Under the pieces are notes generated by a model. It was given only the letters and a program-made list of their open reading frames with translations. It was not told the origin of the DNA and made no database searches. The position numbers were made by a program, and so were the translations under genes. From assembly GCA_964356415.1 (NCBI GenBank), contig CAYHHK010000009.1, forward strand, positions 1 to 54,543: 54,543 bases of DNA, written 5' to 3'. This document shows, one piece after another, positions 1,981-45,113 of this stretch (position 1 is the stretch's first letter; each line of letters begins with the position of its first letter). This DNA is from an uncultured Flavobacteriales bacterium (lineage in GTDB: Bacteria > Bacteroidota > Bacteroidia > AKYH767-A > 2013-40CM-41-45).

Positions 1981-1989
1981 ATTTGAAGT

Positions 1990-2676: not shown

Positions 2677-2685
2677 AATTTAGTA

Positions 2686-3979: not shown

Positions 3980-4261
3980 ATGGATGATAACTCAAAAGAA
4001 ATATTGCTGGAAATCGCTGACCCCAAAGTTGCCAAAAGACAACCCGGGGATAACCGTCGCCAGAAAAGTATCCCGGAGCATATCCTTCGATTAGGGGATG
4101 TTTCCAAAAAGATACCAATCAGGCTGAATTCGAATACAATTGTCAGTGTCACCAGGTTTACCAGTACGACGCTTGCAGAATTGGCGCACAAATATAAGAA
4201 TCGTGTTTATAATCTCAAACCAGAACTCCTCGATGCAAAATTCACAGTTAAGCCTAATTGA
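3980..4261 (+). CDS. Hypothetical protein
   Basis: This ORF lies within track ORF 3905..4261. The first ATG (MDDNSKEILLE) is at 3980. No motif was recognised. Confidence 0.45.
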   Translation: MDDNSKEILLEIADPKVAKRQPGDNRRQKSIPEHILRLGDVSKKIPIRLNSNTIVSVTRFTSTTLAELAHKYKNRVYNLKPELLDAKFTVKPN

Positions 4262-9655: not shown

Positions 9656-9711
9656 TCGTCGGCGTTTTCAGTGCTGAAATTTCAATTTTTATTCATTTTT
9701 AAATTCTTATC

Positions 9712-25061: not shown

Positions 25062-28000
25062 TTATCGTTTACAATGTTTCATTAATTCTTCAACTGCTGA
25101 ATCGGAAATATCATACTGCACTGTAGGCCCACCTTCCGGTACCCATCCTGCTTTTTCGATATCGGCATCACTCCAATCAACGGCTACATCATTGGGGCCA
25201 TTCTCCATTCCGCTGGACATGTAGGAGTTTTCTTCTGTCACCCTGGCTCCGCCGGAGTAAAGAATCGCAACTTTCCTTGCCCGGGAAATGGCGGTGTACT
25301 TTAGATTTTGCCTTTCGTAAGACCAATCAGCACCTTTCCACTTTTTCATTTTCAGGTTGTTCTTGCTTTCCATATCCTTCCAATCAACCAAAGCATACTG
25401 AAATTCGGATCCTTGCGCCTTGTGTGAAGTGACGGCGTATCCGTAATCAATATTTTTCTTCGTTTCAGTAGCAGCACCGCTGAAAATAAGACGATCAAAT
25501 TCTGTTTCGCCATTGGCATCAGCTTTGAATAATTCAGCATTTGAAACTCTCCAGGCAGACATTGGTTTGACTTCATTCTTATAACCATAGATACTTTCCG
25601 GCAATTGAAGCACTCGCAAAGTATCGTCCAGAGTGTTTTTAAATGATTCGCGTAATCTCCAATCAACCTTTTTATCGTAGGCTTTCAGGGATAATTCATG
25701 AATCGCTTTAAACAATTCTGTATTCACCCCCGGAGAAGTTGTTGGTATAAACACTCTGAATTCTTCAACATTGTCGCCGGCCTCCATATCGGTTTCAATC
25801 ATACGAAGACTGTAACCAACTGCTTTGAAAACCTGCCCTGCTACTTTAACCGGTCTTTCTGTTTCAAATGTAGATTCAACAACCTGGTAATCTTGCCCAT
25901 TGGAAATTTGAGACTGATCAGTTACCTGATCATAACCCATGATAGTTTCACCAACCTGATACGGGATGCGGCCTTTGTCTTCCAAAAGCATTGCACGCAC
26001 CTGTGAATTGTAGTCTTGCACAGCCCTATTGGTATAGGCAATAATTTTAGCATAAGATTTATTTTCTGCATACTCTTTTGAAGTAAACAATTCACGGATT
26101 CTGTCGATGAATTTAACCTGGGTATTCAAGAATTCGACGCCTTCTCCTTTACTGTTAATAGTCGTGGTGTGTGCGAACTGATCAGCAATCTTTAACAGGT
26201 TCTGGCGAATTGTTGTTGCAATCTCCAAAATCGGATTACCATCTGTCTGCCGTTCAATTTTGGTTAGGTTCGCTGATTGTGATTGACTTAATGCACTGCT
26301 CAACGAATTGTCAAATTTACCCGGAGGTGGAATCTGTGCCGGGTCACCCATGAAGATAACCTGACAACCTTTTTGTGCGGCAGTTCTGATGATGGTATCG
26401 GCATCCTCGGTGTTAACCATGGAACCTTCATCAACAATAATCAATGAACCTGAAACGAATTTCTTGCTCCCGCCGGATATCCATTGTTTGTCAACCAATT
26501 GTTTACTTAACAGACTCGCAACTGTATTGACATCTTTCCCGGCCATGAATCCAATACCTTTTGCACGACGAATCATTCTACGCAAAACTTTTGCTGCGCG
26601 ATGTGTTGGTGCTGCAAGGATGATACTGGGCACACCCCGTTTGGCTTCATACAGTTTGACATACTGCAGTAAAAATTTCACAATAGTTGACTTACCTGTG
26701 CCGGCATAACCGGTTAAAGAGAATCCAACTTGTTTGTGATTTGTGTAAAAGTCTGCCATTGCTTGCAATGCGACTTTTTGTTCAGGATTCAGCGCGATGT
26801 TTTCAGTATCAATCTTGATTCCATCAGCAAACTCGAAGGAATTGGCAATGGGATTGTCCAGATTCTTTATACCCTCGTGGGTCATTGGCCCCAGTTCAGC
26901 ACTGGCTATTGCAAGAATCGCTTTACGATCACCATTGTTTTCATCCCAAGCCATAAGACGGTCAGTTTTTGAACTGAAAATTTTAATCCCGTTTTCTCTC
27001 GATGCAACAACTGTGTAACTACTACCACGATAATCAACAACAGTACTTTGATGATCGTTTGCAAATGACAAATCAGAACCTTTTACCCAATCTTTCTTCT
27101 CGCTGTTATTGTCGAGACTCATTAAAAAGTAATCACCATTGACGTCACTTCTTCCAGAAACCACATAAGGTTTACCCTGGTATGTTACTACTGATCCTTT
27201 TGGGTAAATATCTTTTTTCGCTTTTTCAGCAGCAAACGGTTTGATGGTTTTTATTGGATTACCGACAAGTTCAAATTGAAATTGTGTGTACCCGTCTCCT
27301 TTTATGCGATTATAACCTTCTGCATCCCACCCTTCCAGTTTGCTCCACTCTTCAGCAGTTACATTCTCTACGGGATATGAGTCTGAAGTAGCGCGAACCA
27401 TTGCTACTCTTCCATATTGATCTTCAAATTTGATCAATTCGCCAACCCGCACATCTTTTTGTGCTTGCCGGCTTCTGGAAGTTGCTGTTCTGTCTCCGGA
27501 TAAAATTAAATCCATTGTAGATGCTCCTGCAAATTCTGGACGCATTTTTCTACCACCGGTACCATCCGTAAAATTCATCGGCATGTGGTGCGCAATTTCG
27601 TTAGATGGTGCAACTTTCTTCTGAGCAAACTCACTTCTCAACTCCATGAGTATCCTGGAAAACTCTCTTGACCAGAAAGCGTCGTTACCACCGTGGGTAA
27701 TTTTCTTGTCACCGGTTTCCAGAAGTTCCTCAATCGCTGAAGAATTCGCTTCGAAGGACATCCTCATGGCCTCTTTCATCATCTTGATGTTGTAGCCATC
27801 AGCTTTGTTTACAGTCTTGCCGCTGATCTTTGTACCGGCTTTGCTCCAATCACCCTTGTAAGTTGTTTCGTCAAAGGCGCCGGATTTCCATGTCTGATAA
27901 TAATGCTCGACAGAGAAATATTTCTTTCCGTCTTTTCCAAAGAAAGGTCTGATTGCCAGATTGCTGAGATTTGCATTCTTCCCGGATGAGTGCCACACAT

Positions 28001-31000
28001 GGACTGCATCATCGTTGTTTACTGAATAGGTTCCGAACAGATTAATCGAATGTGTAAGTCCTTCCGCCAGTGCAGAATTGTGTCGGATATTCATTCCGAA
28101 TGATTCCATCAGGTCTGTGAACGCTTCTTTAACTTTTTCCCAGAGTGTTGTAGTAGTGCCGGGGATTGTAATCGTATTGAGAAATTCTCTGAACGTCGGG
28201 TCTGTCAACACCATTGTTGCAAACTCTTGAATATTTTGTATTCCGTAGAATTTCTTTACTGATTCCGGATCCATTTGTGCAATCAATTCTTTAGCGGCCT
28301 GGGTGTCAGTTTCTTTAATTACAGAGTATTCGTTCAATGTTTGCGCAAACTTTGCAAATGCTTTGGATAATTCAGCATCATTTGATATAACATTTCTTGC
28401 CTGATTCATTACATTGATAATACCCTGTACCGCCGTTGCTTGCGTTTCAGTCAAGTTGAACTGCTCAAGGGTTTTTCCTGGGGCCTTAGATTCAAGAAAG
28501 GCCATGTAATTCACAATACTTGTTTTGGTAAGTGCGTGAATTACTTCGTGTAACAGTGTTTTCTGAACGTCTCTTACTGATTTGGTTTCACCGAGTTTAG
28601 TCGTGTTGATAACCATTTGGTGATTATCTGAATGGTAACTTCCTGAAGACCGATAATCCTTAACAATTTCCAGCTTTAATCCTGGTTTGAGGCTGGATAA
28701 ATTCGGTAAAATCTTAATAGCAAGTGCTTTAAGTGAAGCATCTGAAGATGATGTTGCAATTTCCTGTACAATTTTAATCAACTGTGCATTGCCATCGATG
28801 GAGTTTACGAACCCGGCTTCAGCCAGGTACTCTTCTTTGGAGATAGGAATCTTTTCGGCGGATGGATTTACTTTCGGAGCCTCGAAGGTTGTCTTCGCCG
28901 GGGCTGTCGAGTATGTCATTCCAACCTTATTCTGCGCAATGTTCGAGACTGCAGGTACAGTTGCAGGAAGCGCGCTGTTGTATTCCTTCATTCCGAATGC
29001 ACCAAGAGTTTCAAGTCTGACGTATTCTTCACCATTGTATTTGAACAACAGGGCTTTGTTTCCTTTTACTCCTTGCGGATTGTAAAGTGTAACGAAGATT
29101 GGGTAAACAGTTTCGCTTACCTTGTGGTCTTTCAATGCCTGGACACTCAATTTAAAGCGGGTCATCAGCATTGGATTTGCATTATCTACATCATACAGGT
29201 TTGAGCGTTTCACAGAATTGCCATACGAATCTTTTTCAGTGCGTGATACGTCATGATCCGATAATTTGAACTTTACATCGGTGGCGTTGTGCTGAATGTA
29301 CTGGGTCACGAACTGGGAAACTTCCCAGTATTTTGAACCTTCTGCCGGCATTTTGAATATTCCCAAACTGTCTATGGTACTTTTATTCTGAAACAGGCTG
29401 TTGAGATTACTCAAGAATCCCATGGACATCAAATAGCTTTGTGGGATGTATTTTACAAACTGAACGGCCTCTTGTATTCCACCAGACAGATAAATACCGG
29501 CTATGAGTTCCTGTGCAAGTCTGCGGGTATCATAGGCTACACCGTTAAACTCCACACCCAGGTCAACGGGATTCAGAATCATGTCGGTAAAGGCGTTGAA
29601 AGTATCGTTGCTGAAGGCGGCATCTTTTGGAGCAGCCTGCGTTTTAATCATGGTTGGATAACCCTGGTTGCCATCCTTTACTTCAAGCATGGAGATAAAT
29701 GGATTGTTTTTGCCGTATTCGGTTTTCTTCAAAGCCATCACCAATTGTCCAAGCGGTTTGTGCAGATAGACATCCGGGGCCGGGGTAATAGTAAATCTAT
29801 CTTCGGCAACACCGTTTTCTGACATCTGCTGTTCCTTGCGGGTAATATTAAATATTTTACCATCCACAACAAATACACCGGATGCACCTTCAACTTTTAA
29901 TCCAATCCAATCAGTACCCTGTTTGTTTTTCCATACCTCGATAGAATTCCCGTTGGCTACCATTGCTTTTTGCTCCGGGGTTAAATTCACATTGGAGACA
30001 ATTGGTGCGCCATTGGAAGAGTATCTGAAGAATAACCTGCGACGTTCTGCGCCAGCATCGTCAGTGAACAGATGCATACTTGAAGATGCGAAAAGATAGG
30101 ACTTCATCGAGTTCCATAATTCAGTTCTTTGTTCAAGTTCCGCTGTGGTGGACTCGTTATCGATTCCAATTACTCTGGAAAACTCGGTAAAAATCTGCTG
30201 GATTGCAGGATGTTTGTAAGGAAACAAATCACTCCACAATCTGTTGTTGGTAGTGAGTGCGTAGGCAATAGCCTGACCATTCAGGGTTTCAGGTTTAAAT
30301 CTGATTCCGGTGGTATTCATTTCATCAACCTCACTCAAGTCTACAAAAGAATTTTGCTCATCTGGTGTCAACGCGTTGTAAGCATCTCTCTGTTCCTGAA
30401 TGGCAAGATTGTATGCGGTGCCAAGAAGTTTGCCGGCATTCTCTACTGTGGTCGAACCAAACAGACTCTCTGCTTTTTCTTGTTTCAGTATCGATTCAAT
30501 GATACTTTTACCCATTCCTTTTGAGTCAACATTAACAGCAACCTGCACATGTTGCAGTTGTTTACCGTACTCGTCAAGCATCTGAAACTTTTCCAGGATA
30601 GCAATTTGTGTAAGCACGTAGTCGGCGGATGCCTCACCGTTGGTGATCATGTCGATCATCCTGGTGTTGGAAAGTTCGCCTTCTGCTTTTCCCTGAAGCA
30701 TTAATGTACGCTGAAGGAAATCTGCTTCAACATATTCTTTGTTGTAATATTTACTTTTCGGATCCTCAATCAAATCTCGCATGGCCTGACCAACCTTATC
30801 TGGTGTGAACCCGGAGACTGTTGAACTCAACTGGGCAAGTCGTTTAACATAATCAATCAGGATATCCTGCTGGATAAAATTCAGCGTCTCTTCACCAAAC
30901 CCTAGCTGATTCATCAGCTTGACGGTTTTAAAAGTGTACTGATTGATATGGAGCAATCCGAGAATCTGCAATTTCTCGTTGTCAACAGATGCGGATTGGT

Positions 31001-34000
31001 ATCCGGCGATGACGTCGGAAATATAATACTCGCCATCAGCATGTTCCGAAGCGCCGAGTGTTCTTTCGCGGTTTAGAAACCCTTTGGAAGAAACTGAACC
31101 GAATGAAGTGTGCAGATAACGCAGCTTGTCAATGGTTTCTTTCGGGTCAACAATAACTCGTAATCCATCAACTCTCTGGGCCAACGCGTTGAACACGTTG
31201 TCGAGACTAAAAACAGAGATACCATCCTTGCCGGCTACAGCGTTTAAGAATTTAGTACGCTGGTAAGAATCTGAAAGCCCGCTGAAGAAAGGAACTTCTG
31301 CAACAGTCCCTGGTTCGGTGCCACGCGCACCACGTAAAGTTTGAAACTGCCCCGCCTTGTCAACAAGAATCCATTCCCCAAGAGGGTTGGCTACCTGGTT
31401 TTGCACAGCGGGATCAGAATTCTGCATGATGGCCATGTGGACATCCATGATATTGTTCTGCAAAGTTTCTTTCCCTGGTTTGGTTGACCTGGTGAAACTA
31501 TGCTGACCAGTTTCAGAATCGAAATTATGTGTACGATTGTACATGTAAGCGTACAATTTATCAATGTCGAAGTCCATCCCGGTTTGTGTAACCAAATCTG
31601 ATGGGCCTATGATTGTATTTCCGGATTGATTTGGAAGGAATCCGACGATTTCTGCCCAGACATGTGAATTCAATCCCTGGTTCGGGATACGCATCATCAG
31701 CGCCGTGAGAATATCTGACGGTAATTTTGCAGGATCAATTTTTCCATTGCTCATGAAGTTTTTAACATCGAGCAAATTCCCTTCTTTGTCATGGAAATTC
31801 CATGATACCAGAATCTGTGCCGGTAAAATTTTTCCAGTAGCGGGGTCTTGACGTTGTGGTTGTAGCACACCGCCTTTATAATTCTGTGTGTGGATTATTC
31901 CGGTGATTTTCGCAAGTTCTGCAGCACCGTCAGTAGTATCGGAAGCAATAATCTTTGTGGTATATCCGGCATCCGTGGTTGTAACCCAGGAATCTCCGAA
32001 CATTTTACTTTTACGAATCCTGTTATCCACGATGGAATTAAGCAGGGATTCGAATTTATCAGCAGAAGGTGAGAAAGCAATGGTGTCGATGTATTCGTTC
32101 AAACCAAGCATTTCAAGTTCCGGCAACGGATATCCCCGCATCTCGGCCTCGTCCTGGATAATCGTTTTGATTTTGTTTACATCAGGCTGGCCATCGGCGT
32201 CCAGGATTTCTGCAAGGAATTCCCTCTGATGCAGCTTGAAGAGTTCATCGTAATACTTAAAGTACTCGTTCTCGAGTTCTTCACCGGTATATTCTTTTGT
32301 CTGCCCCGGGATTTTAAATCCTTTGACGCGAAGAAGATTGACGAACAGGTTTTTCGAAGCCTGGGTTACACGATTGATTTCGTGCTCAAGCGCGTGGTAA
32401 GGTACTTCCTGCTGAATTCCAAAATACTTTCTCGGAAGAGTCATCACGGTGCCGGAGAAATCAATCTCTTTTGGATTCTTGATTGATCCATTTGCATTAA
32501 AAATCGTGGTAGGATTACGTGGCCCGCCAACCTTGATGGCTGACATAAAGGCTACGCGCTGTACACCCTGGTTCTTCATCGCTATGCGAAGGTTGTCCAG
32601 TTCAAGACCCTGCACCAGTTTAGGTAACAATGCCGTGGCTGAACTCTTGATATAGAATCTTTTGTAGATTCCATTGCTGAATATGTTCCCGGCGGATACC
32701 GGTTTCGATGGCTGGAAAATTATGTGCTGTAATTCTGCCGATAAATCTTCAGCATTTTCATTCACAAATCCCTGCTTGTCAAGCTGACGTTCCTGCTCGG
32801 TGAGGATTCTTGTAGCGGATGCAAATTCTGCATCGCTAAGTTTACCCTGTTTACGCATGATGTGCAACGCTTCCTGCCAGGAAACAAACTCCTGACCATC
32901 AGTGCTGGTAATACCCGCATATTTTTTAGCGAGTCCCGGGCTTAGTCTGGCTTTGTAAGCAGCAAGTTGTGAAGAATCAACACTGTAGTCTTCAACAATC
33001 GCCTGCGTGTAGGTTTCTTTCTGGCTATCTGCGATTTCATTGCGCGGGGCAATGTCTGCAGCAAGACGTTTACCTACGTTGGTAAACAAATCCTGCATTT
33101 CAGTGATCCGGTCTGTAGGTGTAAAGTGCTGACGATACAACTCCTCGGATGTCATCTGTGCAATTTCGACAGCATCAAATCTTTTACTTTCAATCAGGCG
33201 TTTAATAACAGCGTGTTCAGTTGCAGTACGCCCACCTTTTACCTTTGCGTAAGTCGCCGGGTCACCAATGTACATCATGTACGCGTTGGCATTGCCCACC
33301 AGATACTGAACAACCATATCCTGTGCTGCCATGCGAATCTTTTTGGATTCTTCCACGGATGCAACAGTCTTATTATCTTCAAGGAATTCCTTATCGATGA
33401 AAGCGTTCTTTGTTTTCTTGTCAGATTTGCCGATGCCAAAAGTATCCCATTCTGCAGATTTCTGATCAACCAGGGTATTGATGTGTCTGGCCAGAACCTC
33501 TTTGATTTTGGTTTTCATTTCGGTACTCTGCGCTTCGTCACTCAACATGCCATCTTCGGTGAACAACTCATTCATGTTGTTTAACTCCGGGATGAAATGG
33601 AACTTCGAGGCCATGGCTGCATACCCGTCAATATTGTAAGTTTGGTTTGCGTGGCCAGCCTTCAGTGCAGCCTGGTACTGAACTATGCGTTCAATTTCCG
33701 GAAGCACCATCACTTTGTAAAGATTCTCAAGAGCATTTTCAGTCAATGCTCCTTCAGGAGTAACATCAAACATGAATGCTGGCACCTGTAATCCCACGAC
33801 AGTTTTCTTGTCTGACGTCGTGGGGAAAAACAAACGGATAACCCTGTTGTTATTTCCGGACTGATCCGCACTCGGGGACTGCAGATAAGCAATTTTGATG
33901 AATTCGATATCAGCTTCCGGGAGTGTAGGCAGATCATTGTCCTTTTTATTGGGCATGTCGATATTCTTAACCGGTTCAATACTGTTGACCCAGTAATAAA

Positions 34001-37000
34001 AATTCGAAAATCCTGTTCCCTTGGTGGCGATGATGTACTCACCGTTCTCTGCTTTGATTGGTTTCCCGTCGGCGTCTTTCAGGAACATATCCTGGAGCCA
34101 GGTAGAGTGACGATTGAACATCGTCTTATCATATAGATTGGTAGTCAACGTGTTTGTGAATACTTCCTCTTTTGTTTTGACGTTTCTGGACTTATTCAGT
34201 CTGCGAAATTCCTGGGTTTGTGTGGAGATTAACCGGTTCCGGCTAAAAGTTTGAATCGTTTTGCCACGAACTCTGTGCGAATTACTTGCAACCTGATCAG
34301 TAAAACGTGAAGCAAACAAAGCCAGATCTCCGACAACCTTTTCTTTGGTGATTGGGTTGTTGTCTTCCAGGGTGCTTGCTGATCTGTTCTTTACGTTTTG
34401 GTTTAAGATGAAGAACAATCCGTTATTGTTGGTCAGCATGAAACTCAAACTCTGCGGTTGATTACCACGAATGAATCTGCCATCCATTAAGGCATCCAGG
34501 GTATTTGGCGAAAGTTCAATCCCAAACAGGTTTAAATATTCTGACACATCTTCCCTGCTCGGTAATTTCTTGTCTGTACCCTTATAGGCGTCCACCATGC
34601 GCTGATATGTTGCTTCGATGGCTACTCTGCCATCAGCAGAATAAACTGCGCTACCGGGGTTGTCAAGTGGTTCTATTACGAATTCTTTTGACATCAAATT
34701 GTCAGTCCAGTTGCTTTTCAGTGCAGCACCTTCGGCAAACGCATTGCTTGCAGTATCCCGAAGAACATACTTACCGGATTTATCAGTACTCCACATGATG
34801 AACCGAAGAGACATAAAGTGCCCGGTCATGGCATGAACAAACTGATTGCGCAATTGCGTGTCACCGCTTTCAAGCAACGCTACTACATCAGCAGCCCACG
34901 GGTGATGTACTGCCATTTCGTTTTTCAGGAAATCCCGCATGACGATATAATCCGAAGGCAATCCTTCAAGTACCTTTTGCAGTGTATTGAACACTTCATC
35001 AAAAGGTTTGAGTTCCTGGATTCCCAGATAGTTCAGTTTGGGTGAACCATCTTCTTTATACGCCTTGACGGTGGTAAGCATTCGCTTTACCAACACGCCG
35101 GCACTATCCTTTGCATCGTAGGAGAATTCACTGTATTCACTCCAATCATTTTGTTCAGTGCGTTGTGATTCTGCCTTCTCTTCCGAATCTTCAGAATTCA
35201 ATTCCGCAAGTTTCTGACGTTTCGTGGTCAGTTTGAAGTTGTGCGCTTCTTCTGATGGTTTGGAATCAAGATGCGCATTACCGAGTTTGCTTAATGATCC
35301 TTCAGTAAGCGTGACAAGTTGTGCCCAGTTGTCAAGTAATTCTTTATAAGTGGCAGCTTTCAATGTAAATTTATCCACTGAACCCCAATCCTCATTTTTA
35401 GTTGCAGCTTCAATATTGCGAAGCATCTTTGCATGAAGTTCAGTAAACTTTGCTTTGTATTCATCAAAGATTGCTGTAGCATTGATTGCTTTCTTTCCGC
35501 TTTTGAATAATCTGTTCAAGACTTCATTCATCATCATCCCGGTAACAGCCATCTGCTTACGTGCCCCTAATGCTTTAATCAGGTAGGTTCCAGTATTCTG
35601 GGCCATTTCCTGGCTATTCTGGTCAGTGTAATCAGGAATATCTTCCGTGATTGTCGCAGAATTATTGTCGGATCCGGCGTTAAATTCGCCTTCATCTTCG
35701 TATTCTATTTGGGTAGTAGCGGGTTCAGATGACTGTTCAGTTTCTTTGCCAACGACATTCACTTCCGTCAATGATTGCCCAGCAACGGGCTTTGCTGAAC
35801 TGGGAACAACAGTAGTTGCTGCTTCCGCAGGGTCTTCAAATGTGATAACTGGTTGCAGTGTGTATGACCAGACTTTCTTTTCTTCAGTACCCACGTTTGA
35901 CCCTACAACATTCGTTGTCGTCATCCTGGTTGCAAGTTCCCGGTATGGCATCATAGTCGGTTTATCCTCAAGAGTCATCAACACTACCGGAGTATTTTCA
36001 GAAACATGCGCAGTATTCATTGCAAAACGAACTCCTACGTGACTTTCGCTAACCAAGAAGCCTTCAGGTACAGAGGTAGTTACACCATTGGTAACTTTAT
36101 TAACCTTGACAAACAGTGCGTCAAGTGTTTTTTCATTATGCTCATCAGATGTATTGTGTGATGCAAATTTATGATCAAATCCCATACCTCGGGAGAATTC
36201 CAGATTACCATTCTTCATTACAACGACAGGAATATCACTTCCAATAGAGGCTCCACCACCATCTGTATTCAGATACCCAATTTTAGAAGCCTGTCCTAAT
36301 CCATTGGAACGCATCAACACATCGGAATTGCCGATGTTGTAATTGTTGATGAACATTTCCATGTACTGTGCAATACCTTTCTGGGTTAAGATATCGATCT
36401 TTGACTTTTCTCGTATGGCTTTTGCGAATCCGTTGATATCAGTCTTCGAAAGATAGCAGGCCATTGCTGCACGAATTGAATACGCGATAGTACGACCCAA
36501 TTTAGAATCTGCAAGTTTCGTGTTGGTGATTGCAATTGCAGCGTAGATGGGTTGTTTTGTTTCATCATTGAATCCAACAGGAACAACAACGTAACTCCAA
36601 CCATTTTTAATTTCGGTGTTCAACAATTGCCCATCAAAAAATTTATCCTGGCCACTACCCAGCGCAAGCCTGTCACCTTTACCTACGGCAAGAATTAAAT
36701 TCTCGTCTGGCATCAGATCGAATACTGATTTCTTTTCGCCACCAACGGTTTTGAAAAGGTATCCAATGGATTTTGATGTGACTTTGGTTTTAACCGTGTT
36801 GCCTTTGGATTTTTCTGCAAGGATATGACTGCGAAGATTTAAATTTTTCGCCCTGTCTTCTTTTACCTGATCTGTAGTGCCGGCAACATTCTCTGCTTTT
36901 ATCCAGCTTGACGCGTGAACTGCAGCTACTGCATTACCTTCCGGGCCAAGAATCTGTATGGGAACATTCTCTTTATACTCACGCAGTTGCGTGATGTCCT

Positions 37001-40000
37001 GTCCTTTGTAGGTATCGCGTAACCGATTTTTGTACTCTCCCCACTTGATAGTAACTTTACCATCAGTGCCAGGATCGTAAATATCTGCGGTATCGTCGTC
37101 CTTTACATTGAAGGAAATTTCAGTACCGGGTCTGAATTTGCTGATATCCATCAGTTCCCGGCTAATACTGTTACGCATTTCATTGGTATGCTCTTCACGT
37201 TTGAAGGAGAACCCTTCTTTGATTGTAGCGTAAGTACGTGCAAGGTAAGCCATGATGACAGAACCTTTCGAGACTCTTTTGTAGTCATAAGCTACGGTAC
37301 TGTTTTCGCTTTGGGGATCACCGGAATCCGCTGCTTCAATTACTGAACGCAAGTTTGCTTCCTGCTCAAGTAACGCGCCTTCATACTCTGGCCCCATTAC
37401 CTGACCATTGACGATGCCAGCAGCTAATCTTTCCTGGGTTTCAAGTTCCTGCTCTTCATCTTTGGTAGCAGTGAGAATTTCTGAATATTGTTTCCACCCA
37501 AGTTCCCCAAGCTGCTGCGAAGTTTCTTTAATCGCTGCACGATCTTTGTCGACAGTTTTCGCCAGGTAAGATGACTTGAATGACGGGAATAATTCCTGGG
37601 CTATTTCAACACCACGTTGTTCACCGTATTTGCTTTTATAATATGTTTCAGCCTGAATCATAATATCTGACAGCGAAACTGATCCATCACGTTTGATTAA
37701 ATGATCCATGATGGCAGACATCATTTTCCATGCAGCAAGCTGACGATCTTCTGCAGATGGTGGGACAGGTTGTGCAACAGTTTCACCTGGGTCAATGTCT
37801 TCGGTTATACCAGAGATTTCAGCAAACCCGTCAAACATCGTATTCAATTCTGCATCTGCTGCAAACATTGCGTGGATATCTCCGGCAGCTTCATCAGGTG
37901 TCACTGGTTCAACAACAGGATTAACAACTGGTGCCACTGGCGCCGCAGTCCCCGCTGGTGTTTGTGTCCCGGGAGTAGTTTGAGTGTTGACGGCTCTTGG
38001 TGCTGGTTGTCCAGTTTGTGCTGGTTGTGCAGCAGAAAATGGTGTGGATGCTTTAGTTACGGTAGATGCCGGAGTTGCTGTCGCTGCAGGTGTCGCTGTA
38101 TTATTCTTAGAATTCTTTTTGGCTTTGGTTGCAGCAGTACGTTGTGCTTTTTTATTTATAGTTCCGCTTTTAACACCTGCTAAACGAGTTTCAAGTTTAG
38201 TTTGTGCTTGCGAGATCATGCTTTTTAAATCTTCAAACGCTCTATAATCGTACCTTTCTTTATTCCCAAGTTTGGATAATTTTGCAATTTGTTTTTTAAT
38301 CGCAGATTCAGAAGTTGCTTTTTCTCCAGCTTCTAAAATTGTCTGCATTTGAAGTACTCCGTTTTGATACGCGTGACTGGATTTTTTACGCAATGTGTAC
38401 TTTAACTCGCTGGCTTGTTCACGAATTTCGTCAAAGTTTTGATTCGCCTGCAAGAACTCCTGGTATTCCTGTGACTGTTCAACCAAGTCTCCGGAAGTAT
38501 CTGGTAACCAGCTTAAAATTTCTTCAACCCGTGTTGATAAATCTTTCCACCCATAATGAACAGAGTTTTCAAGTTTACCCTTTTCCGCCATAATATCTTC
38601 GTGAAGTTCCACGAAAAGATTATTTACAGTTACCTTTTTGTCATCAGTGAGTAAACTACCTTCAAGCGTAGAATTCACAACGTCTGAAAGTTTAGAAACA
38701 GCTTGCTTCAGTTTAATAGACGACGGTTCCGCGTACTTTTTAATGATATGGATGGTTTCATCCAACAAGAACAACTCCTGGCTATTGGGTCTGCCAGAAT
38801 TGGCTACCCAGGCTTTCTTCATTCTCTGAACTTCTTTCGAAATTTCCCTGGCTTGCGCCGCTTTCTCACCACTTCCCGAACTCACATCTGCTAACAGGTT
38901 TTCAAAATTCTCGATGGTTCCTTTTTGCAAATTTTCTGCAATCAATGGAAGCAATGTCATGTGCTGTACCACTGTTTCCATATCGGAGTTACCTGAAGCA
39001 ACAGCTTCCTTCAGCATATCCTGGGACTGCTGATAAGAATCCATTTTATTCTCAAAGTAATCCTTGTTGATTTTAATCAAATCCTGTTGGGAATCGTAAG
39101 CTTCCTGTTCACGTTGTTTTGCTTTAGCTCCATATCCTTTACCAATAATTTTGGATACAACATGCTGCGGGTAACCTCCAAGTGCACCCATCAATCCTTC
39201 AGTCAATGCCTGTGGGGATGTCGCATATTTTGACATTCTGCCAAGTAAACTTTTACTATAGGTTCTGGGGTTAAGCAAATCAGATGATTCCCCTGATTGA
39301 GCAACACCATTTACCACGGGATGTTCAACTCCTGACCAACGCTGGCCCATAAATTCACCTTCATTCTGCATTACGTTTTGCGTGATTTCTTCTACACCCT
39401 CTTTACCAGCTTGAAGAAGAGCATTGTCTGCACTTAATTTTGTGAGATTCCTGCCAATTTTTTGAGCACCTTCGTAAAACCCTTTGGTTGGTTTTTCAAT
39501 CATCCCTGCCAACATATTCTTCCCGGAAAATACTCCGCGAACCTGGATCATGTCTGCCCACAGATTACTGGCATTTGCCAAACGAAAAGTAGTCGCGGCT
39601 TTCGCAGCATTGTCAGATACTTCCCGAAACCGCTTTTGTAAGGCTTCGTCTGCATCTTTGTTTATATCTTTAATCATACTCTGTAATTCTTCGGGAGTAT
39701 AATTATCAGCTACTTTCATTAACTCATCAACTCTTGCGCCAGCCTCCATCTTCATTTGCTCATCATAAGCTTTCAACTCCGGAGTCATTTCACGCATCAC
39801 GTTGTTGTACAATCCGTGAGCCATTGTACCGCCTTCTATGAAATTCATGGTAACACCGGCACCGACTTCTTTCGCTACTTGCTGGAACGCTGGACGCAAT
39901 GAATTAAAAGCCATTGCTCCTGCATTGCCTGTAAGCGCATTGATTCCTTTTCCTACAAGACCCGCTGCACCGGTCATCAAAGCCATTTGACCCATTACTC

Positions 40001-40607
40001 CACCAACGGATTCAAGCGTACCTTCTGCTGCTGTAAACATAAAGCCGGCACTAAACTCTGGCCCGCCATCAGAACCGGGTTTTTGACGTTGGGGTAAACC
40101 AGCATCAATATTTTCCCGCATTTTTCCCAATGCATTCATAGTAACTGTGCGAAGCCCGTTATTGTACGCCTCTTCTAACGCGCCTATTTTCAGTAGAGAG
40201 TTTACTTCATCATCACTTTTTGTTGCAAAATTTGGTACTATTTGCATCACACCTTCAGCAATAAAAATTGGTATTTTTAAGGCAAGCTGTCCAAACATGT
40301 TTCCAGTGCGATCCCACAATCCCTGCTTATCATACAATTCCTGTTGGTAGTCTTCTTCGGTTTTATCAGCAGACATTTTAATCCCATGCCCGGCTAAAAT
40401 TTCCGATTCCCAACTTCCACCAAACATTCCCGGTTTCCAATGGTCTGTGAAACTGCGTGTACCTTCACCGAGAGTTTGTACAAACTGATCACCGTTTGGC
40501 GCAACAGGTTGTGATGCTTGTCTTCTTGATACTTTAGGGTCTGCTTGAAAAGGGGCGGGGCCTGTTAAGCCGGTCATTGGGTCTATTTCCTGATATTCGT
40601 CAGCCAT
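25062..40607 (-). CDS. Giant multidomain protein (5181 aa): putative virion-packaged RNA polymerase-like core fused to polyvalent-protein-type domains
   Basis: This is an uninterrupted 15,546-nt ORF. Individual domains are listed as separate features. Its position after the tail and cargo genes parallels the ejected giant proteins of podoviruses and crAss-like phages. Confidence 0.9.
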   Translation of the reverse strand: MADEYQEIDPMTGLTGPAPFQADPKVSRRQASQPVAPNGDQFVQTLGEGTRSFTDHWKPGMFGGSWESEILAGHGIKMSADKTEEDYQQELYDKQGLWDRTGNMFGQLALKIPIFIAEGVMQIVPNFATKSDDEVNSLLKIGALEEAYNNGLRTVTMNALGKMRENIDAGLPQRQKPGSDGGPEFSAGFMFTAAEGTLESVGGVMGQMALMTGAAGLVGKGINALTGNAGAMAFNSLRPAFQQVAKEVGAGVTMNFIEGGTMAHGLYNNVMREMTPELKAYDEQMKMEAGARVDELMKVADNYTPEELQSMIKDINKDADEALQKRFREVSDNAAKAATTFRLANASNLWADMIQVRGVFSGKNMLAGMIEKPTKGFYEGAQKIGRNLTKLSADNALLQAGKEGVEEITQNVMQNEGEFMGQRWSGVEHPVVNGVAQSGESSDLLNPRTYSKSLLGRMSKYATSPQALTEGLMGALGGYPQHVVSKIIGKGYGAKAKQREQEAYDSQQDLIKINKDYFENKMDSYQQSQDMLKEAVASGNSDMETVVQHMTLLPLIAENLQKGTIENFENLLADVSSGSGEKAAQAREISKEVQRMKKAWVANSGRPNSQELFLLDETIHIIKKYAEPSSIKLKQAVSKLSDVVNSTLEGSLLTDDKKVTVNNLFVELHEDIMAEKGKLENSVHYGWKDLSTRVEEILSWLPDTSGDLVEQSQEYQEFLQANQNFDEIREQASELKYTLRKKSSHAYQNGVLQMQTILEAGEKATSESAIKKQIAKLSKLGNKERYDYRAFEDLKSMISQAQTKLETRLAGVKSGTINKKAQRTAATKAKKNSKNNTATPAATATPASTVTKASTPFSAAQPAQTGQPAPRAVNTQTTPGTQTPAGTAAPVAPVVNPVVEPVTPDEAAGDIHAMFAADAELNTMFDGFAEISGITEDIDPGETVAQPVPPSAEDRQLAAWKMMSAIMDHLIKRDGSVSLSDIMIQAETYYKSKYGEQRGVEIAQELFPSFKSSYLAKTVDKDRAAIKETSQQLGELGWKQYSEILTATKDEEQELETQERLAAGIVNGQVMGPEYEGALLEQEANLRSVIEAADSGDPQSENSTVAYDYKRVSKGSVIMAYLARTYATIKEGFSFKREEHTNEMRNSISRELMDISKFRPGTEISFNVKDDDTADIYDPGTDGKVTIKWGEYKNRLRDTYKGQDITQLREYKENVPIQILGPEGNAVAAVHASSWIKAENVAGTTDQVKEDRAKNLNLRSHILAEKSKGNTVKTKVTSKSIGYLFKTVGGEKKSVFDLMPDENLILAVGKGDRLALGSGQDKFFDGQLLNTEIKNGWSYVVVPVGFNDETKQPIYAAIAITNTKLADSKLGRTIAYSIRAAMACYLSKTDINGFAKAIREKSKIDILTQKGIAQYMEMFINNYNIGNSDVLMRSNGLGQASKIGYLNTDGGGASIGSDIPVVVMKNGNLEFSRGMGFDHKFASHNTSDEHNEKTLDALFVKVNKVTNGVTTSVPEGFLVSESHVGVRFAMNTAHVSENTPVVLMTLEDKPTMMPYRELATRMTTTNVVGSNVGTEEKKVWSYTLQPVITFEDPAEAATTVVPSSAKPVAGQSLTEVNVVGKETEQSSEPATTQIEYEDEGEFNAGSDNNSATITEDIPDYTDQNSQEMAQNTGTYLIKALGARKQMAVTGMMMNEVLNRLFKSGKKAINATAIFDEYKAKFTELHAKMLRNIEAATKNEDWGSVDKFTLKAATYKELLDNWAQLVTLTEGSLSKLGNAHLDSKPSEEAHNFKLTTKRQKLAELNSEDSEEKAESQRTEQNDWSEYSEFSYDAKDSAGVLVKRMLTTVKAYKEDGSPKLNYLGIQELKPFDEVFNTLQKVLEGLPSDYIVMRDFLKNEMAVHHPWAADVVALLESGDTQLRNQFVHAMTGHFMSLRFIMWSTDKSGKYVLRDTASNAFAEGAALKSNWTDNLMSKEFVIEPLDNPGSAVYSADGRVAIEATYQRMVDAYKGTDKKLPSREDVSEYLNLFGIELSPNTLDALMDGRFIRGNQPQSLSFMLTNNNGLFFILNQNVKNRSASTLEDNNPITKEKVVGDLALFASRFTDQVASNSHRVRGKTIQTFSRNRLISTQTQEFRRLNKSRNVKTKEEVFTNTLTTNLYDKTMFNRHSTWLQDMFLKDADGKPIKAENGEYIIATKGTGFSNFYYWVNSIEPVKNIDMPNKKDNDLPTLPEADIEFIKIAYLQSPSADQSGNNNRVIRLFFPTTSDKKTVVGLQVPAFMFDVTPEGALTENALENLYKVMVLPEIERIVQYQAALKAGHANQTYNIDGYAAMASKFHFIPELNNMNELFTEDGMLSDEAQSTEMKTKIKEVLARHINTLVDQKSAEWDTFGIGKSDKKTKNAFIDKEFLEDNKTVASVEESKKIRMAAQDMVVQYLVGNANAYMMYIGDPATYAKVKGGRTATEHAVIKRLIESKRFDAVEIAQMTSEELYRQHFTPTDRITEMQDLFTNVGKRLAADIAPRNEIADSQKETYTQAIVEDYSVDSSQLAAYKARLSPGLAKKYAGITSTDGQEFVSWQEALHIMRKQGKLSDAEFASATRILTEQERQLDKQGFVNENAEDLSAELQHIIFQPSKPVSAGNIFSNGIYKRFYIKSSATALLPKLVQGLELDNLRIAMKNQGVQRVAFMSAIKVGGPRNPTTIFNANGSIKNPKEIDFSGTVMTLPRKYFGIQQEVPYHALEHEINRVTQASKNLFVNLLRVKGFKIPGQTKEYTGEELENEYFKYYDELFKLHQREFLAEILDADGQPDVNKIKTIIQDEAEMRGYPLPELEMLGLNEYIDTIAFSPSADKFESLLNSIVDNRIRKSKMFGDSWVTTTDAGYTTKIIASDTTDGAAELAKITGIIHTQNYKGGVLQPQRQDPATGKILPAQILVSWNFHDKEGNLLDVKNFMSNGKIDPAKLPSDILTALMMRIPNQGLNSHVWAEIVGFLPNQSGNTIIGPSDLVTQTGMDFDIDKLYAYMYNRTHNFDSETGQHSFTRSTKPGKETLQNNIMDVHMAIMQNSDPAVQNQVANPLGEWILVDKAGQFQTLRGARGTEPGTVAEVPFFSGLSDSYQRTKFLNAVAGKDGISVFSLDNVFNALAQRVDGLRVIVDPKETIDKLRYLHTSFGSVSSKGFLNRERTLGASEHADGEYYISDVIAGYQSASVDNEKLQILGLLHINQYTFKTVKLMNQLGFGEETLNFIQQDILIDYVKRLAQLSSTVSGFTPDKVGQAMRDLIEDPKSKYYNKEYVEADFLQRTLMLQGKAEGELSNTRMIDMITNGEASADYVLTQIAILEKFQMLDEYGKQLQHVQVAVNVDSKGMGKSIIESILKQEKAESLFGSTTVENAGKLLGTAYNLAIQEQRDAYNALTPDEQNSFVDLSEVDEMNTTGIRFKPETLNGQAIAYALTTNNRLWSDLFPYKHPAIQQIFTEFSRVIGIDNESTTAELEQRTELWNSMKSYLFASSSMHLFTDDAGAERRRLFFRYSSNGAPIVSNVNLTPEQKAMVANGNSIEVWKNKQGTDWIGLKVEGASGVFVVDGKIFNITRKEQQMSENGVAEDRFTITPAPDVYLHKPLGQLVMALKKTEYGKNNPFISMLEVKDGNQGYPTMIKTQAAPKDAAFSNDTFNAFTDMILNPVDLGVEFNGVAYDTRRLAQELIAGIYLSGGIQEAVQFVKYIPQSYLMSMGFLSNLNSLFQNKSTIDSLGIFKMPAEGSKYWEVSQFVTQYIQHNATDVKFKLSDHDVSRTEKDSYGNSVKRSNLYDVDNANPMLMTRFKLSVQALKDHKVSETVYPIFVTLYNPQGVKGNKALLFKYNGEEYVRLETLGAFGMKEYNSALPATVPAVSNIAQNKVGMTYSTAPAKTTFEAPKVNPSAEKIPISKEEYLAEAGFVNSIDGNAQLIKIVQEIATSSSDASLKALAIKILPNLSSLKPGLKLEIVKDYRSSGSYHSDNHQMVINTTKLGETKSVRDVQKTLLHEVIHALTKTSIVNYMAFLESKAPGKTLEQFNLTETQATAVQGIINVMNQARNVISNDAELSKAFAKFAQTLNEYSVIKETDTQAAKELIAQMDPESVKKFYGIQNIQEFATMVLTDPTFREFLNTITIPGTTTTLWEKVKEAFTDLMESFGMNIRHNSALAEGLTHSINLFGTYSVNNDDAVHVWHSSGKNANLSNLAIRPFFGKDGKKYFSVEHYYQTWKSGAFDETTYKGDWSKAGTKISGKTVNKADGYNIKMMKEAMRMSFEANSSAIEELLETGDKKITHGGNDAFWSREFSRILMELRSEFAQKKVAPSNEIAHHMPMNFTDGTGGRKMRPEFAGASTMDLILSGDRTATSRSRQAQKDVRVGELIKFEDQYGRVAMVRATSDSYPVENVTAEEWSKLEGWDAEGYNRIKGDGYTQFQFELVGNPIKTIKPFAAEKAKKDIYPKGSVVTYQGKPYVVSGRSDVNGDYFLMSLDNNSEKKDWVKGSDLSFANDHQSTVVDYRGSSYTVVASRENGIKIFSSKTDRLMAWDENNGDRKAILAIASAELGPMTHEGIKNLDNPIANSFEFADGIKIDTENIALNPEQKVALQAMADFYTNHKQVGFSLTGYAGTGKSTIVKFLLQYVKLYEAKRGVPSIILAAPTHRAAKVLRRMIRRAKGIGFMAGKDVNTVASLLSKQLVDKQWISGGSKKFVSGSLIIVDEGSMVNTEDADTIIRTAAQKGCQVIFMGDPAQIPPPGKFDNSLSSALSQSQSANLTKIERQTDGNPILEIATTIRQNLLKIADQFAHTTTINSKGEGVEFLNTQVKFIDRIRELFTSKEYAENKSYAKIIAYTNRAVQDYNSQVRAMLLEDKGRIPYQVGETIMGYDQVTDQSQISNGQDYQVVESTFETERPVKVAGQVFKAVGYSLRMIETDMEAGDNVEEFRVFIPTTSPGVNTELFKAIHELSLKAYDKKVDWRLRESFKNTLDDTLRVLQLPESIYGYKNEVKPMSAWRVSNAELFKADANGETEFDRLIFSGAATETKKNIDYGYAVTSHKAQGSEFQYALVDWKDMESKNNLKMKKWKGADWSYERQNLKYTAISRARKVAILYSGGARVTEENSYMSSGMENGPNDVAVDWSDADIEKAGWVPEGGPTVQYDISDSAVEELMKHCKR
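25260..26800 (-). other. RecD/Dda-like SF1 helicase domain (C-terminus of the giant protein)
   Basis: Motifs seen are LNPEQKVALQ, Walker A GYAGTGKST, AAPTHRAAKVL, IIVDEGSMV, IFMGDPAQIPP, YAVTSHKAQGSEF and YTAISRARK. Confidence 0.85.
27265..27560 (-). other. ASCH/PUA-like beta-barrel domain (tentative)
   Basis: RPEFAGASTMDLILSGDRTATSRS...VGELIKFEDQYGRVAMVRATSD...EEWSKLEGW resembles the ASCH pattern (il.G.KT.E.R...... Gd.i.f). Confidence 0.35.
27625..28015 (-). other. NADAR (DUF1768/YbiA-like) domain
   Basis: VHVWHSSGKNANLSNLAIRPFFGKDGKKYFSVEHYYQTWK...LLETGDKKITHGGNDAFWS...SRILMELRSEF matches the NADAR pattern (fSNf...pF..dG..y.svEhyfQa.K ... Ll.Tg...l.E....D.yWG ... LmevR). Confidence 0.6.
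28400..28700 (-). other. Zincin-type metallopeptidase motif region (HExxH)
   Basis: The sequence is SYHSDNHQMVINTTKLGETKSVRDVQKTLLHEVIHALTK, with HEVIH at nt 28536-28550. It resembles the metallopeptidase modules of phage polyvalent proteins. Confidence 0.5.
31560..31697 (-). other. RNA polymerase beta-prime-like double-psi beta-barrel segment with a DxDxD metal motif
   Basis: MMRIPNQGLNSHVWAEIVGFLPNQSGNTIIGPSDLVTQTGMDFDIDKLYAYM aligns by eye with bacterial beta-prime [47 protein letters not shown]. The R-x-P to DFDxD spacing is 39 versus 35 residues. Confidence 0.45.
37885..38155 (-). other. Low-complexity Thr/Ala/Pro/Gln/Val-rich linker in the giant protein
   Basis: The tract is KKAQRTAATKAKKNSKNNTATPAATATPASTVTKASTPFSAAQPAQTGQPAPRAVNTQTTPGTQTPAGTAAPVAPVVNPVVEPVTPDE. 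It is locally GC-rich and produces several spurious antisense ORFs. Confidence 0.8.
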
Positions 40608-44243: not shown

Positions 44244-45113
44244 TTAGAAACGATTTGAGAAGACGTATGCTGATTTAGTTGTTGGATTTACCCAACTTAC
44301 CTCACCCTGTTCAACAGTAGCTACAGATTCTTTACTACTGATAGCTGAAGGATTTCCCAACGCATCGACTGGAATACCTTCATACCCTGAAGTGTTCTGT
44401 TCATGTGTTCCGCCCCCGGTATATTGATTGATCATTGGCATGATTCCGCCACCCGCATAGCGTGGTAACTTTCCACCCATCGCTGCCTGCGGTGTTTGAA
44501 AATTCCCGGCATCTGTCAGGCGAGAAGCGTTGATTGCATTTTGACTTTGGATTGCACTATCGCGACCCTTAGATTGGCGTGCCATTTCTTTAGCTTCAGC
44601 GGCTCTTGTAAGTCCGCCATAAACCGGAACCATCGAACCTAATCCTTTTCCCCACTGTCCTTGAGATATTTCACCAATGCCGCGTGTAAATCCATCCAAA
44701 GGATTTACAACATCATTTAGTAATTGTACGCCGATACTTGATTCATTGTTATTTGCAATGGCACCGATAGTTTCATCGACGATTGTATCTGCTATTGCAA
44801 TAGCAGTACCTACAACTGGGATGGCATTCAATCCTACACGGATAGTATTCCGTGCCAGGTTTTGCACACTTTCCCCACTGGAAAAATCTGTTGACATTGC
44901 ATCTGATAAAATGCCTACTCCGGCAGAAGCTACGCCGGCACCACTTATTCCCCCGGAAGATTTAACTGCACCTGATGTTGATGTCGCTGATCCATTGGGA
45001 TTTTGGAAAGTCAGTGTAGGTTCCAGCAAGGGATTGCCACCAGCAGCGAGTTTGTTTAATCCAGAATATTTGGTAAGAAGATGATTGAGGTATGGAGACT
45101 TATATTTTGTCAT
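44244..45113 (-). CDS. Gly/Ala-rich virion-type hypothetical protein (289 aa)
   Basis: This is the first gene downstream of the candidate promoter at 45167-45197. The composition is glycine- and alanine-rich. Confidence 0.7.
   Translation of the reverse strand: MTKYKSPYLNHLLTKYSGLNKLAAGGNPLLEPTLTFQNPNGSATSTSGAVKSSGGISGAGVASAGVGILSDAMSTDFSSGESVQNLARNTIRVGLNAIPVVGTAIAIADTIVDETIGAIANNNESSIGVQLLNDVVNPLDGFTRGIGEISQGQWGKGLGSMVPVYGGLTRAAEAKEMARQSKGRDSAIQSQNAINASRLTDAGNFQTPQAAMGGKLPRYAGGGIMPMINQYTGGGTHEQNTSGYEGIPVDALGNPSAISSKESVATVEQGEVSWVNPTTKSAYVFSNRF

Follow-up and report, generated by a model that had tools for sequence, protein, structure and literature searches.

Contig CAYHHK010000009.1 of GenBank assembly GCA_964356415.1, assigned to an uncultured Flavobacteriales bacterium, was analyzed over its full length of 54,543 nucleotides (hereafter the window). 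It contains a single open reading frame (ORF) encoding a protein of 5181 residues, which we refer to as the giant. In our judgment the giant is probably a complete crAss-like "transcription block" in the form of one polypeptide, which would be packaged in the virion and ejected into the host, and whose C-terminal tail would serve the polymerase. The phage itself would be a crAss-like phage of Bacteroidota, probably a marine one. Phages of this group rank among the most abundant ones that infect gut and marine Bacteroidota, and the finding bears on how a packaged crAss-like polymerase starts transcription on duplex DNA in a defended cell.

From N- to C-terminus the block would consist of a part in the position of gp67 of phage phi14:2, a two-barrel RNA polymerase (RNAP) of the gp66 type, a zincin-like peptidase of the gp65 type and an accessory tail that varies with the lineage. 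An earlier interpretation made from the DNA letters alone (the sequence-only reading) had proposed an RNAP-like core with a DxDxD motif, followed in order by a zincin, NADAR, ASCH-like, beta-rich and helicase segments. Its coordinates and length for the ORF were exact, and translation confirmed that the frame is uninterrupted, with no internal stop codon. The core with its aligned motif was identified as a gp66-type RNAP, and all of the listed domains were found in the order given. The proposed architecture is right: this polymerase shares one chain with a zincin and a series of enzymatic domains unrelated to each other. The N-terminal ~1650 residues, which the sequence-only reading left undiscussed, represent the gp67-position module and are part of the same known fusion.

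A gp66-type RNA polymerase forms the core of the giant

When the core region was compared with the PDB using phmmer, it matched 6vr4_A, the DNA-dependent RNAP gp66 of phi14:2 (E 1.5e-19), in stretches distributed over gp66 residues 724-1794. The same region matched phrog_16227 in the PHROG collection (E 1e-69). A tblastn search with a 600-residue query around the motif DFDID returned 133 phage records, nearly all of them from Crassvirales and Flavobacterium psychrophilum phages and including phi14:2 g066. The sequence GMDFDIDK (aa 3010-3017) aligns with GSDFDIDK of gp66 and contains the sole D.D.D motif of the giant; the catalytic aspartates of gp66 were each mutated to alanine and assayed in the gp66 study. 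Two double-psi beta-barrels are predicted for this region on the basis of its long colinear alignment to gp66.

Two properties of this polymerase type are relevant to what follows. gp66 transcribes the early genes of the phage, for which no promoter motif is known, and it transcribes single-stranded and denatured DNA, not double-stranded DNA (gp66 study). QDE-1, a structural relative of gp66, needs the helicase QDE-3 and RPA.

A zincin-like module follows the polymerase

The module directly after the RNAP holds the only HExxH motif of the giant. In an alignment of 11 sequences that share 14-26% identity, the only invariant columns were H4020, E4021, H4024 and E4128/F4129. An HExxH motif combined with a distal glutamate is the gluzincin pattern. 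Exactly one HExxH occurs at the equivalent place in nearly every homologue, including gp32 of the cultured Flavobacterium phage FpV4 and phi14:2 gp65, and an iterative local jackhmmer profile of the module extends to gp65 aa 165-342. A zincin-like protease was assigned to gp65 by Drobysheva et al.

The best Pfam match of the module was to SprT-like (E 0.011). An AF2 model was obtained with a pLDDT of 79 and a pTM of 0.77, and in a Foldseek search with this model the minigluzincins selecase and jannalysin had the highest probability (0.77-0.91) but E values above 0.3. Because these fold matches are not significant, we term the module zincin-like and not a proven zincin; the assignment draws on the invariance of the motif and on the literature.

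An SF1B helicase lies near the C-terminus of the giant

The helicase retains motifs I, II, III and V, which we identified as GTGKS (4636), DEGSM (4726), GDPAQ (4754) and SHKAQG (5061). In Pfam it matched AAA_30 with 92 bits (E 4e-26; gathering score 27), AAA_19 with 71 bits, PIF1 and UvrD_C_2; in PHROG it matched the Dda-like family phrog_325 (E 1e-71), and in the PDB 9kwf_B (5e-20), Dda (4e-11), RecD2 and TraI. The scores fell short of the NCBIfam equivalog cut-offs for RecD2 (100.6 versus 500 bits, E 6e-29), RecD (74.7 versus 310) and TraI (50.5 versus 2212). By its sequence, this domain is a clear member of the SF1B superfamily and not an orthologue of RecD, RecD2 or TraI.

NADAR and ASCH-like domains lie between the peptidase and the helicase

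The NADAR domain matched phrog_1017 (E 1e-5), E. coli YbiA (2b3w, E 4e-4) and the NADAR crystal structure 8bau (E 0.016). It is 39-45% identical to the corresponding domains of relatives, some of which, in proteins P0004 (61 bits) and P0007 (54 bits), exceed the Pfam threshold. Its motifs SVEHYYQTWK (aa 4232-4241) and THGGNDAFW (aa 4304-4312) align with the active-site residues described in PMC11543638, and the place that E125 has in the P. nicotianae enzyme is taken by His4305. This position is Glu in the YbiA family, Asp in NADARs linked to DarT and His in phage NADARs (Schuller et al., PMC11543638). NADARs reverse the DarT1-type ADP-ribosylation of guanine in single-stranded DNA, and orphan phage NADARs neutralize DarTG1 (PMC11825919, PMC11543638).

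The domain also shares 40% identity (E 1e-18) with part of a gene annotated "toprim domain-containing protein" in the jumbo-type Bacillus phage vB_BspM_AgentSmith (MW749006.1, 46400-46801). This match indicates that NADAR is fused to other DNA enzymes in unrelated phages as well.

By its fold, the adjacent segment is a divergent ASCH domain. Its AF2 model has a pLDDT of 80-93 over aa 4335-4450, and the top Foldseek match was 1t62 (DUF984/ASCH, E 2e-4), together with seven ZmASCH chains (probability 0.97-1.0). When a profile built from 29 members of this family was compared with the PDB, the two best matches were the YqfB entries 1te7 (E 0.019) and 9kyf (E 0.05), and 10 of the 29 members matched Pfam ASCH when searched singly (best E 1.7e-4). 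Residues R4373, T4376, R4378 and E4425 align with K21, T24, R26 and E74 of YqfB, and T4376, R4378 and E4425 are invariant or nearly so. YqfB-type ASCH amidohydrolases cleave N4-acyl-cytosine, and mutagenesis has shown these four YqfB residues to be catalytic (PMC6972931).

A search with the ASCH-like domain yielded 219 representative proteins at E<=1e-3. Among the best 146 matches, 75 were at least 1500 residues long (up to 6678), and at least 39 of these 75 carry the RNAP catalytic region. At least eight proteins have NADAR as the immediate neighbor of the ASCH-like domain, on one side of it or the other.

The beta-rich segment that separates the ASCH-like domain from the helicase had no homologues in our searches and gave weak fold matches, to Tudor/KOW/SH3-like structures only.

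Relatives carry different tails and insert accessory domains into the polymerase

The giant is colinear with several relatives over most of its length, and the association of accessory domains with the RNAP recurs among them. gp32 of FpV4, annotated "virion structural protein", is a single ORF of 4287 residues, found in ~29 near-identical Fpv/FPSV records; it is colinear with giant aa 1798-4190 and stops just past the zincin. P0067 (5201 aa) is colinear with giant aa 1210-5121 at 23-35% identity. In the loci L004-L006 the same content is present as a 2708-aa gene plus a 2441-aa gene (P0001), and L004 is colinear with giant aa 1099-5149.

What follows the zincin differs between relatives. The tail consists of NADAR in P0004, P0007 and P0012, and of NADAR plus helicase in P0001, whose tail may also include a SLOG-like segment recognized by eye only. 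An ASCH-like segment was recognized, also by eye, in the tail of P0013. In P0003 the same position is occupied by ART-PolyVal (Pfam E 1.9e-14), which ties the tail directly to the polyvalent-protein repertoire. The tails of P0005, P0006, P0008 and P0009 contain ~45-aa repeats (W..VkDL.G.PSH..GGi.l......F......v.A..GL) with no Pfam match, and these repeats may be another accessory module of RNAP polyproteins.

Accessory domains of relatives also enter the RNAP catalytic region itself, at two reused sites that lie just upstream and just downstream of DFDID and correspond to giant aa ~2890-2910 and ~3160 (nucleotides ~31880-31940 and ~31130 of the window). An ASCH-like domain is inserted within this region in P0021, P0025, P0033 and P0039, and a NADAR domain in P0067. 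Such insertions speak for an action of NADAR and ASCH as parts of the polymerase chain, and not only as released effectors.

A separate observation concerns L004, L005 and L006, where a 157-aa ORF with Ferritin/Rubrerythrin Pfam matches (9520-9993 in each) lies between the 2708-aa and 2441-aa genes. In this closest two-gene relative the ferritin-like ORF splits the RNAP at giant aa ~2795-2812, and it is an odd passenger in a polymerase block.

Most proteins of the block have a cysteine near the C-terminus

The giant contains three cysteines in 5181 residues, and one of them, Cys5179, is located in its last six residues (aa 5176-5181, window 25065-25082). Over 62 RNAP-containing proteins, Cys makes up 0.08% of residues, but in 50 of these proteins a Cys falls within the last seven residues, a placement expected by chance in ~0.6% of cases per protein. 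FpV4 gp32, phi14:2 gp67 and the 2708-aa protein of L004 each have exactly one Cys, at or beside the C-terminus, and the end of cr118_1 gp14 (...KHCKGE) resembles that of the giant. The rule is independent of which domain comes last, and it fails for the conserved ~1500-aa partner encoded downstream. Cysteine is not mentioned in the paper on the crAss001 structure. The obvious candidate role for this residue would be that of a signal for packaging or anchoring.

The N-terminal third has homologues in few phages

Stand-alone RNAP homologues of 2400-2800 residues begin at giant aa ~1680-1840, and the first ~1650 residues of the giant are therefore extra. They matched no Pfam, PHROG or NCBIfam family and gave no match in a large word-indexed protein search; local homologues were found only in cr108_1 and L004. 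Residues 159-856, which include most of module M1, matched aa 153-708 of cr108_1 gp_22606 (E 9e-24 to 9e-32 by tblastn and phmmer), a 2967-aa protein of a gut crAss-like phage that runs on from its M1-like N-terminus into RNAP. Module M2 matched aa 858-1365 of the 2708-aa protein of L004 (E 1e-46, local search). M1 holds the two most hydrophobic stretches of the giant, aa 97-132 and the Gly/Ala/Met-rich aa 183-240, and no clear transmembrane helix was found in the N-terminal 1650 residues (highest 19-residue hydropathy 1.34). Neither module has detectable similarity to phi14:2 gp67 or to the N-terminus of FpV4 gp32, so the equivalence to gp67 is positional. Besides the two N-terminal linkers, linker-like sequence was present near aa ~3895-3925, at the border of the RNAP and the zincin-like module.

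The annotated end of cr108_1 gp_22606 lies just before the DFDID position, and the next gene, gp_22607, continues the RNAP after a gap of 290 nucleotides (L001 28284-28736). Possible reasons for this junction are a split of the catalytic site, an intron, or a problem of annotation such as Yutin et al. 2021 describe.

The giant gene lies in a block of virion genes

The giant gene is located inside a dense minus-strand block (20.6-52.9 kb) together with genes of PHROG "virion structural protein" families. Opposite this block is a plus-strand replication module that encodes SNF2-type and DnaB-like helicases, a primase and exonuclease VIII. The nearest neighbors are a 708-aa ORF upstream (gap 10 nt) and a 1473-aa ORF downstream (gap 5 nt). 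A late or virion block in which large conserved partners accompany the RNAP was also seen by synteny in FpV4, cr118_1, L004/L005 and phi14:2. The 1473-aa ORF has the same position as FpV4 gp33, cr118_1 gp15 and the 1538-aa protein of L005.

The 708-aa and 499-aa ORFs can be equated with the ejected cargo proteins of crAss001 by position only, and tblastn of the 708-aa, 499-aa and 1364-aa ORFs of the window gave no match to FpV4 or L004 proteins. Three successive ORFs upstream of the giant (708, 499 and 289 aa; 40618-45113, minus strand) have zero Cys and no family match. A megablast search of 10.6 kb of the window against phage genomes returned no match, which indicates a phage without a close sequenced relative. 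Stop-codon reassignment, which occurs in some crAss-like phages, was considered and found unneeded, as the standard code yields long ORFs throughout the window.

Table 1. Features of the giant ORF and its neighbors, in window coordinates. Residue i of the giant starts at nucleotide 40607-3(i-1).
Feature	Residues	Coordinates	Strand	Basis or remark
Whole giant ORF	1-5181	25062..40607	minus	5181 aa, 575.4 kDa, pI 5.6, ATG start
N-terminal module M1	1-810	38178..40607	minus	Matches N-terminus of cr108_1 gp_22606
Ala/Thr/Pro-rich low-complexity linker	811-954	37746..38177	minus	Composition scan
N-terminal module M2	955-1590	35838..37745	minus	Homologous to 2708-aa protein of L004
Acidic Ser/Thr-rich linker	1591-1679	35571..35837	minus	Composition scan; coincides with N-termini of stand-alone RNAP homologues
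crAss-like (gp66-type) virion RNAP region	~1680-3900	28908..35570	minus	6vr4_A, phrog_16227 and phage matches
Catalytic DFDID motif	3012-3016	31560..31574	minus	Aligned to gp66 DFDID
Zincin-like metallopeptidase module	3925-4195	28023..28835	minus	Equivalent to N-terminal part of phi14:2 gp65
HEVIH putative zinc-binding/catalytic motif	4020-4024	28536..28550	minus	Only HExxH in the giant
NADAR domain	4196-4334	27606..28022	minus	Phage type; His4305 at the YbiA-family Glu position
Divergent ASCH (PUA-like) domain	4335-4455	27243..27605	minus	Conserved R4373/T4376/R4378/E4425
Beta-rich segment	4456-4600	26808..27242	minus	Strands predicted, pLDDT <50
SF1B RecD/Dda-like helicase	4601-5120	25248..26807	minus	Intact core motifs
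Acidic C-terminal tail	5121-5181	25065..25247	minus	Ends ...MKHCKR
Downstream 1473-aa ORF		20635..25056	minus	Conserved separate partner; phmmer E 1e-110 to 1538-aa protein of L005
Upstream 708-aa and 499-aa ORFs		40618..44243	minus	No Cys; place of FpV4 gp31/gp30 and crAss001 cargo gp45/gp46

Proposed role of the giant

By homology with phi14:2 and crAss001, the chain would be made late, loaded into the capsid and driven into the host either before the DNA or together with it. In the host the RNAP would transcribe the early genes, and the tail would most likely serve the polymerase. The SF1B helicase could open the incoming duplex, since a gp66-type RNAP uses a single-stranded template. The NADAR domain could strip ADP-ribose from the bases of the single strand thus exposed, on which DarT-type toxins act. 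The ASCH domain may be a YqfB-like amidohydrolase that removes N-acyl-type adducts, or a modified-base reader that targets the pair to modified bases. The zincin could cut the chain at low-complexity linkers or activate the RNAP. The analysis itself establishes the ORF, the identities of its domains, the conserved catalytic residues, the colinearity with relatives and the repeated linkage of these domains to the RNAP, and we infer packaging, ejection and cleavage of the giant as well as all of its enzyme activities and their substrates.

A more specific form of this proposal, which we advance tentatively and consider doubtful as a whole, is that template-preparation enzymes are wired into the polymerase: a helicase to provide single-stranded DNA, and NADAR and an ASCH amidohydrolase to strip DarT-type ADP-ribose or N-acyl adducts from the strand or from the first transcripts. 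These enzymes would be appended after the zincin or inserted in the core, and the C-terminal Cys would be a signal for packaging, anchoring or ejection.

The sequence-only reading had linked first-wave transcription to counter-defence enzymes delivered at ejection. This is plausible only for the NADAR domain, given that DarTG1 is neutralized by phage NADARs; the helicase, on the other hand, is better explained as an aid to template unwinding because gp66 transcribes single-stranded and not double-stranded DNA.

Several observations weigh against a packaged chain whose tail acts on the template. Packaging and ejection are extrapolated from homologues at ~25% identity, and the giant is known as a sequence alone. 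The phi14:2 and FpV4 blocks, and many others, do without a fused helicase, and this type of polymerase therefore does not depend on one in cis. A chain of 575 kDa would need to pass unfolded through the tail channel or to be cut beforehand. Some of the domain assignments are also less than secure: the NADAR domain scored 23-25 bits against Pfam PF08719 (E 2.4e-5 to 1e-4), which is below the gathering score of 35.1; the window's own copy of the ASCH domain did not match Pfam ASCH; and Foldseek with the zincin model gave no match at E<0.001. The catalytic Lys21 of YqfB is replaced by an invariant Arg4373 in the ASCH-like family, so this family may bind rather than hydrolyze its ligand. A PADLOC search of the window gave generic SF1-helicase matches only and none of the DarG/NADAR type, an outcome that neither supports nor excludes an anti-DarT role. 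We know of no DarT-like system in the host.

One alternative is that the giant is a true polyprotein, cut at the linkers (aa 811-954, 1591-1679, ~3895-3925 and after 4195) by the zincin or by a prohead protease. The products would be ejection or scaffold modules, the RNAP, and free NADAR, ASCH and helicase counter-defence proteins that act separately in the host, in the manner proposed for classical polyvalent-protein effectors. Drobysheva et al. proposed that the fused form is cleaved and that the gp65 zincin has a part in this, and Iyer et al. 2017 (PMC5512222) proposed that polyvalent proteins in general are processed by zincins. The module borders match gene borders of relatives (the RNAP N-terminus at aa ~1650-1840 and the gp66/gp65-type borders), in which the same parts occur as two or three genes, and linkers stand at those borders. 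However, the composition scan found nothing linker-like between NADAR, ASCH and the helicase, and we were unable to define a cleavage-site motif. In the several relatives that carry NADAR or ASCH-like domains within the RNAP catalytic region, cutting these domains out would destroy the polymerase. We consider a true polyprotein possible but would not expect it. Partial processing is compatible with it, so that it overlaps with our preferred explanation of a tail serving the polymerase, and cleavage at the N-terminal linkers is quite possible.

It could also be speculated that the tail is never delivered. Its helicase and de-modifying enzymes might then work at a late stage in the producing cell, for instance in replication or packaging. 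Alternatively, the C-terminal ~1000 residues would be removed before packaging, and the fusion would serve co-expression only. Other helicases are indeed encoded in the replication module of the phage, these domains are missing from many crAss-like virion RNAP blocks, and the sequence itself is no proof that the tail is packaged. This explanation is nevertheless improbable. The C-terminal peptide with its conserved Cys is kept downstream of whatever accessory domains are present, which suggests that the whole chain, up to its end, is constrained in the way that gp66 and gp67 are as stand-alone virion proteins. Cys is depleted throughout the chain, including the tail, which fits a protein that unfolds through a channel, and accessory domains of relatives are inserted in the RNAP core. 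A last possibility is that the giant ORF is an artefact of assembly or sequencing that fused separate genes, as relatives carry the block as two or three genes and the window comes from uncultured material. We rejected this explanation as having almost no likelihood. Both the ORF list and an independent translation showed a single stop codon, the terminal one, in 15.5 kb of DNA with 43% G+C, and the G+C content is even along the ORF (~0.42-0.45). Homologues are colinear over nearly the full length; FpV4 gp32, cr118_1 gp14 (4946 aa) and P0067 are independent single-ORF relatives; and an identical 5181-aa protein is present in a public protein collection (P0020).

If the tail does serve the polymerase, NADAR-type counter-defence against DarT would extend from small free proteins to injected virion enzymes. 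A polymerase chain with its own helicase and two domains of predicted base-de-modifying type also offers separately expressible parts with which to probe the start of transcription. In addition, the ASCH-like family, whose 219 representative proteins are mostly giant, and the C-terminal Cys rule are simple markers that could improve the annotation of divergent or misnamed genes.

Comparison with known systems

The order of parts in the giant is that of phi14:2 gp67, gp66 and gp65. In phi14:2 these are three genes (g067, 1797 aa; g066, 2180 aa; g065, 1421 aa), whereas the giant is one ORF. All three phi14:2 products were identified as virion proteins by MS/MS, as crAss001 gp47, gp49 and gp50 are also present in virions, and phi14:2 gp66 and gp67 likewise end in a C-terminal Cys. 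Unlike the giant, phi14:2 gave no NADAR, ASCH-like or helicase match.

FpV4 gp32 resembles the giant in that one ORF comprises an N-terminal part of ~1800 residues, RNAP and zincin, with a single Cys at the C-terminus. The flanks are similar as well, with two mid-size ORFs upstream and a ~1500-aa ORF downstream. In contrast, gp32 ends ~70 residues after the zincin and lacks the giant's ~990-aa tail of NADAR, ASCH, beta-rich and helicase segments; the two proteins are ~24% identical.

In cr118_1 gp14 (Suoliviridae), RNAP (aa 2885-3579) is combined with a C-terminal SF1B helicase (aa 4438-4911, E 8e-34), as in the giant. It differs in that matches to NADAR or ASCH-like domains were not detected, in the place of its HExxH (aa 1734) and in its origin from a human-gut lineage. 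RefSeq names it "exonuclease V"; because it is annotated by its helicase alone, the fusion is present in databases but uninterpreted. Other giant genes of RNAP blocks are publicly named after a minor domain or a spurious match in the same way, and "DprA-like DNA recombination-mediator protein" and "nuclear pore complex-like protein" are further examples. Besides cr118_1 gp14 (L007 5349-20189), records in cr113_1 and cr271_1 are affected, and the polymerase is thereby hidden.

The virion RNAP of the N4 gp50 type also has a large N-terminal region, an RNAP, a zincin-like peptidase and variable effectors (ART, lysozyme, RNase), and it is packaged, injected and starts early transcription (PMC5512222). 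The N4 polymerase, a T7-like single-subunit enzyme, has no relationship to the two-barrel gp66 type, and the two layouts resemble each other by convergence. Iyer et al. 2017 (PMC5512222) classed N4-type virion RNAPs as polyvalent proteins and noted a fused zincin peptidase in almost all cases; crAss, NADAR and ASCH are not mentioned there. Polyvalent proteins combine at least two disparate activities on one chain, and the giant has predicted RNAP, zincin-like, NADAR, ASCH-like and SF1B helicase domains. No ART-PolyVal, MPTase-PolyVal or LPD marker domain was found in it with Pfam at E<=0.1.

The active-site motifs of the orphan phage NADARs and DarG1 (PMC11825919, PMC11543638) are present in the giant's NADAR domain, which has the His typical of phage NADARs. 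These NADARs, DarG1 and YqfB (PMC6972931) are small free-standing proteins, whereas the giant embeds NADAR and ASCH-like domains in a 575-kDa RNAP chain with a presumed virion location.

These comparisons also limit what is new. A passage of Drobysheva et al., citing Yutin et al. 2018, states that gp67, gp66 and gp65 are fused to a "single huge polyprotein" in some crAss-like phages, and a review describes RNAP genes of up to ~6000 residues as a crAss-like hallmark. The claim of the sequence-only reading that the giant is one of the largest phage proteins holds poorly next to this figure and to relatives of 5201, 5271, 6099 and 6678 residues. Nor is the fusion a new link, as that reading had suggested: fusion of the block was known, N4-type RNAPs are already polyvalent and cr118_1 gp14 already joins RNAP to a RecD-like helicase. 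The architecture proposed by that reading thus stood, while its novelty was overstated. What appears to be undescribed is the variable post-zincin tail on a two-barrel RNAP, the pairing of NADAR with ASCH and their insertion into the polymerase, and the near-universal C-terminal Cys of RNAP-block proteins; none of these was found in the searchable literature, the coverage of which is partial and makes this weak evidence. The giant is a single-chain version of the already known crAss-like virion RNAP.

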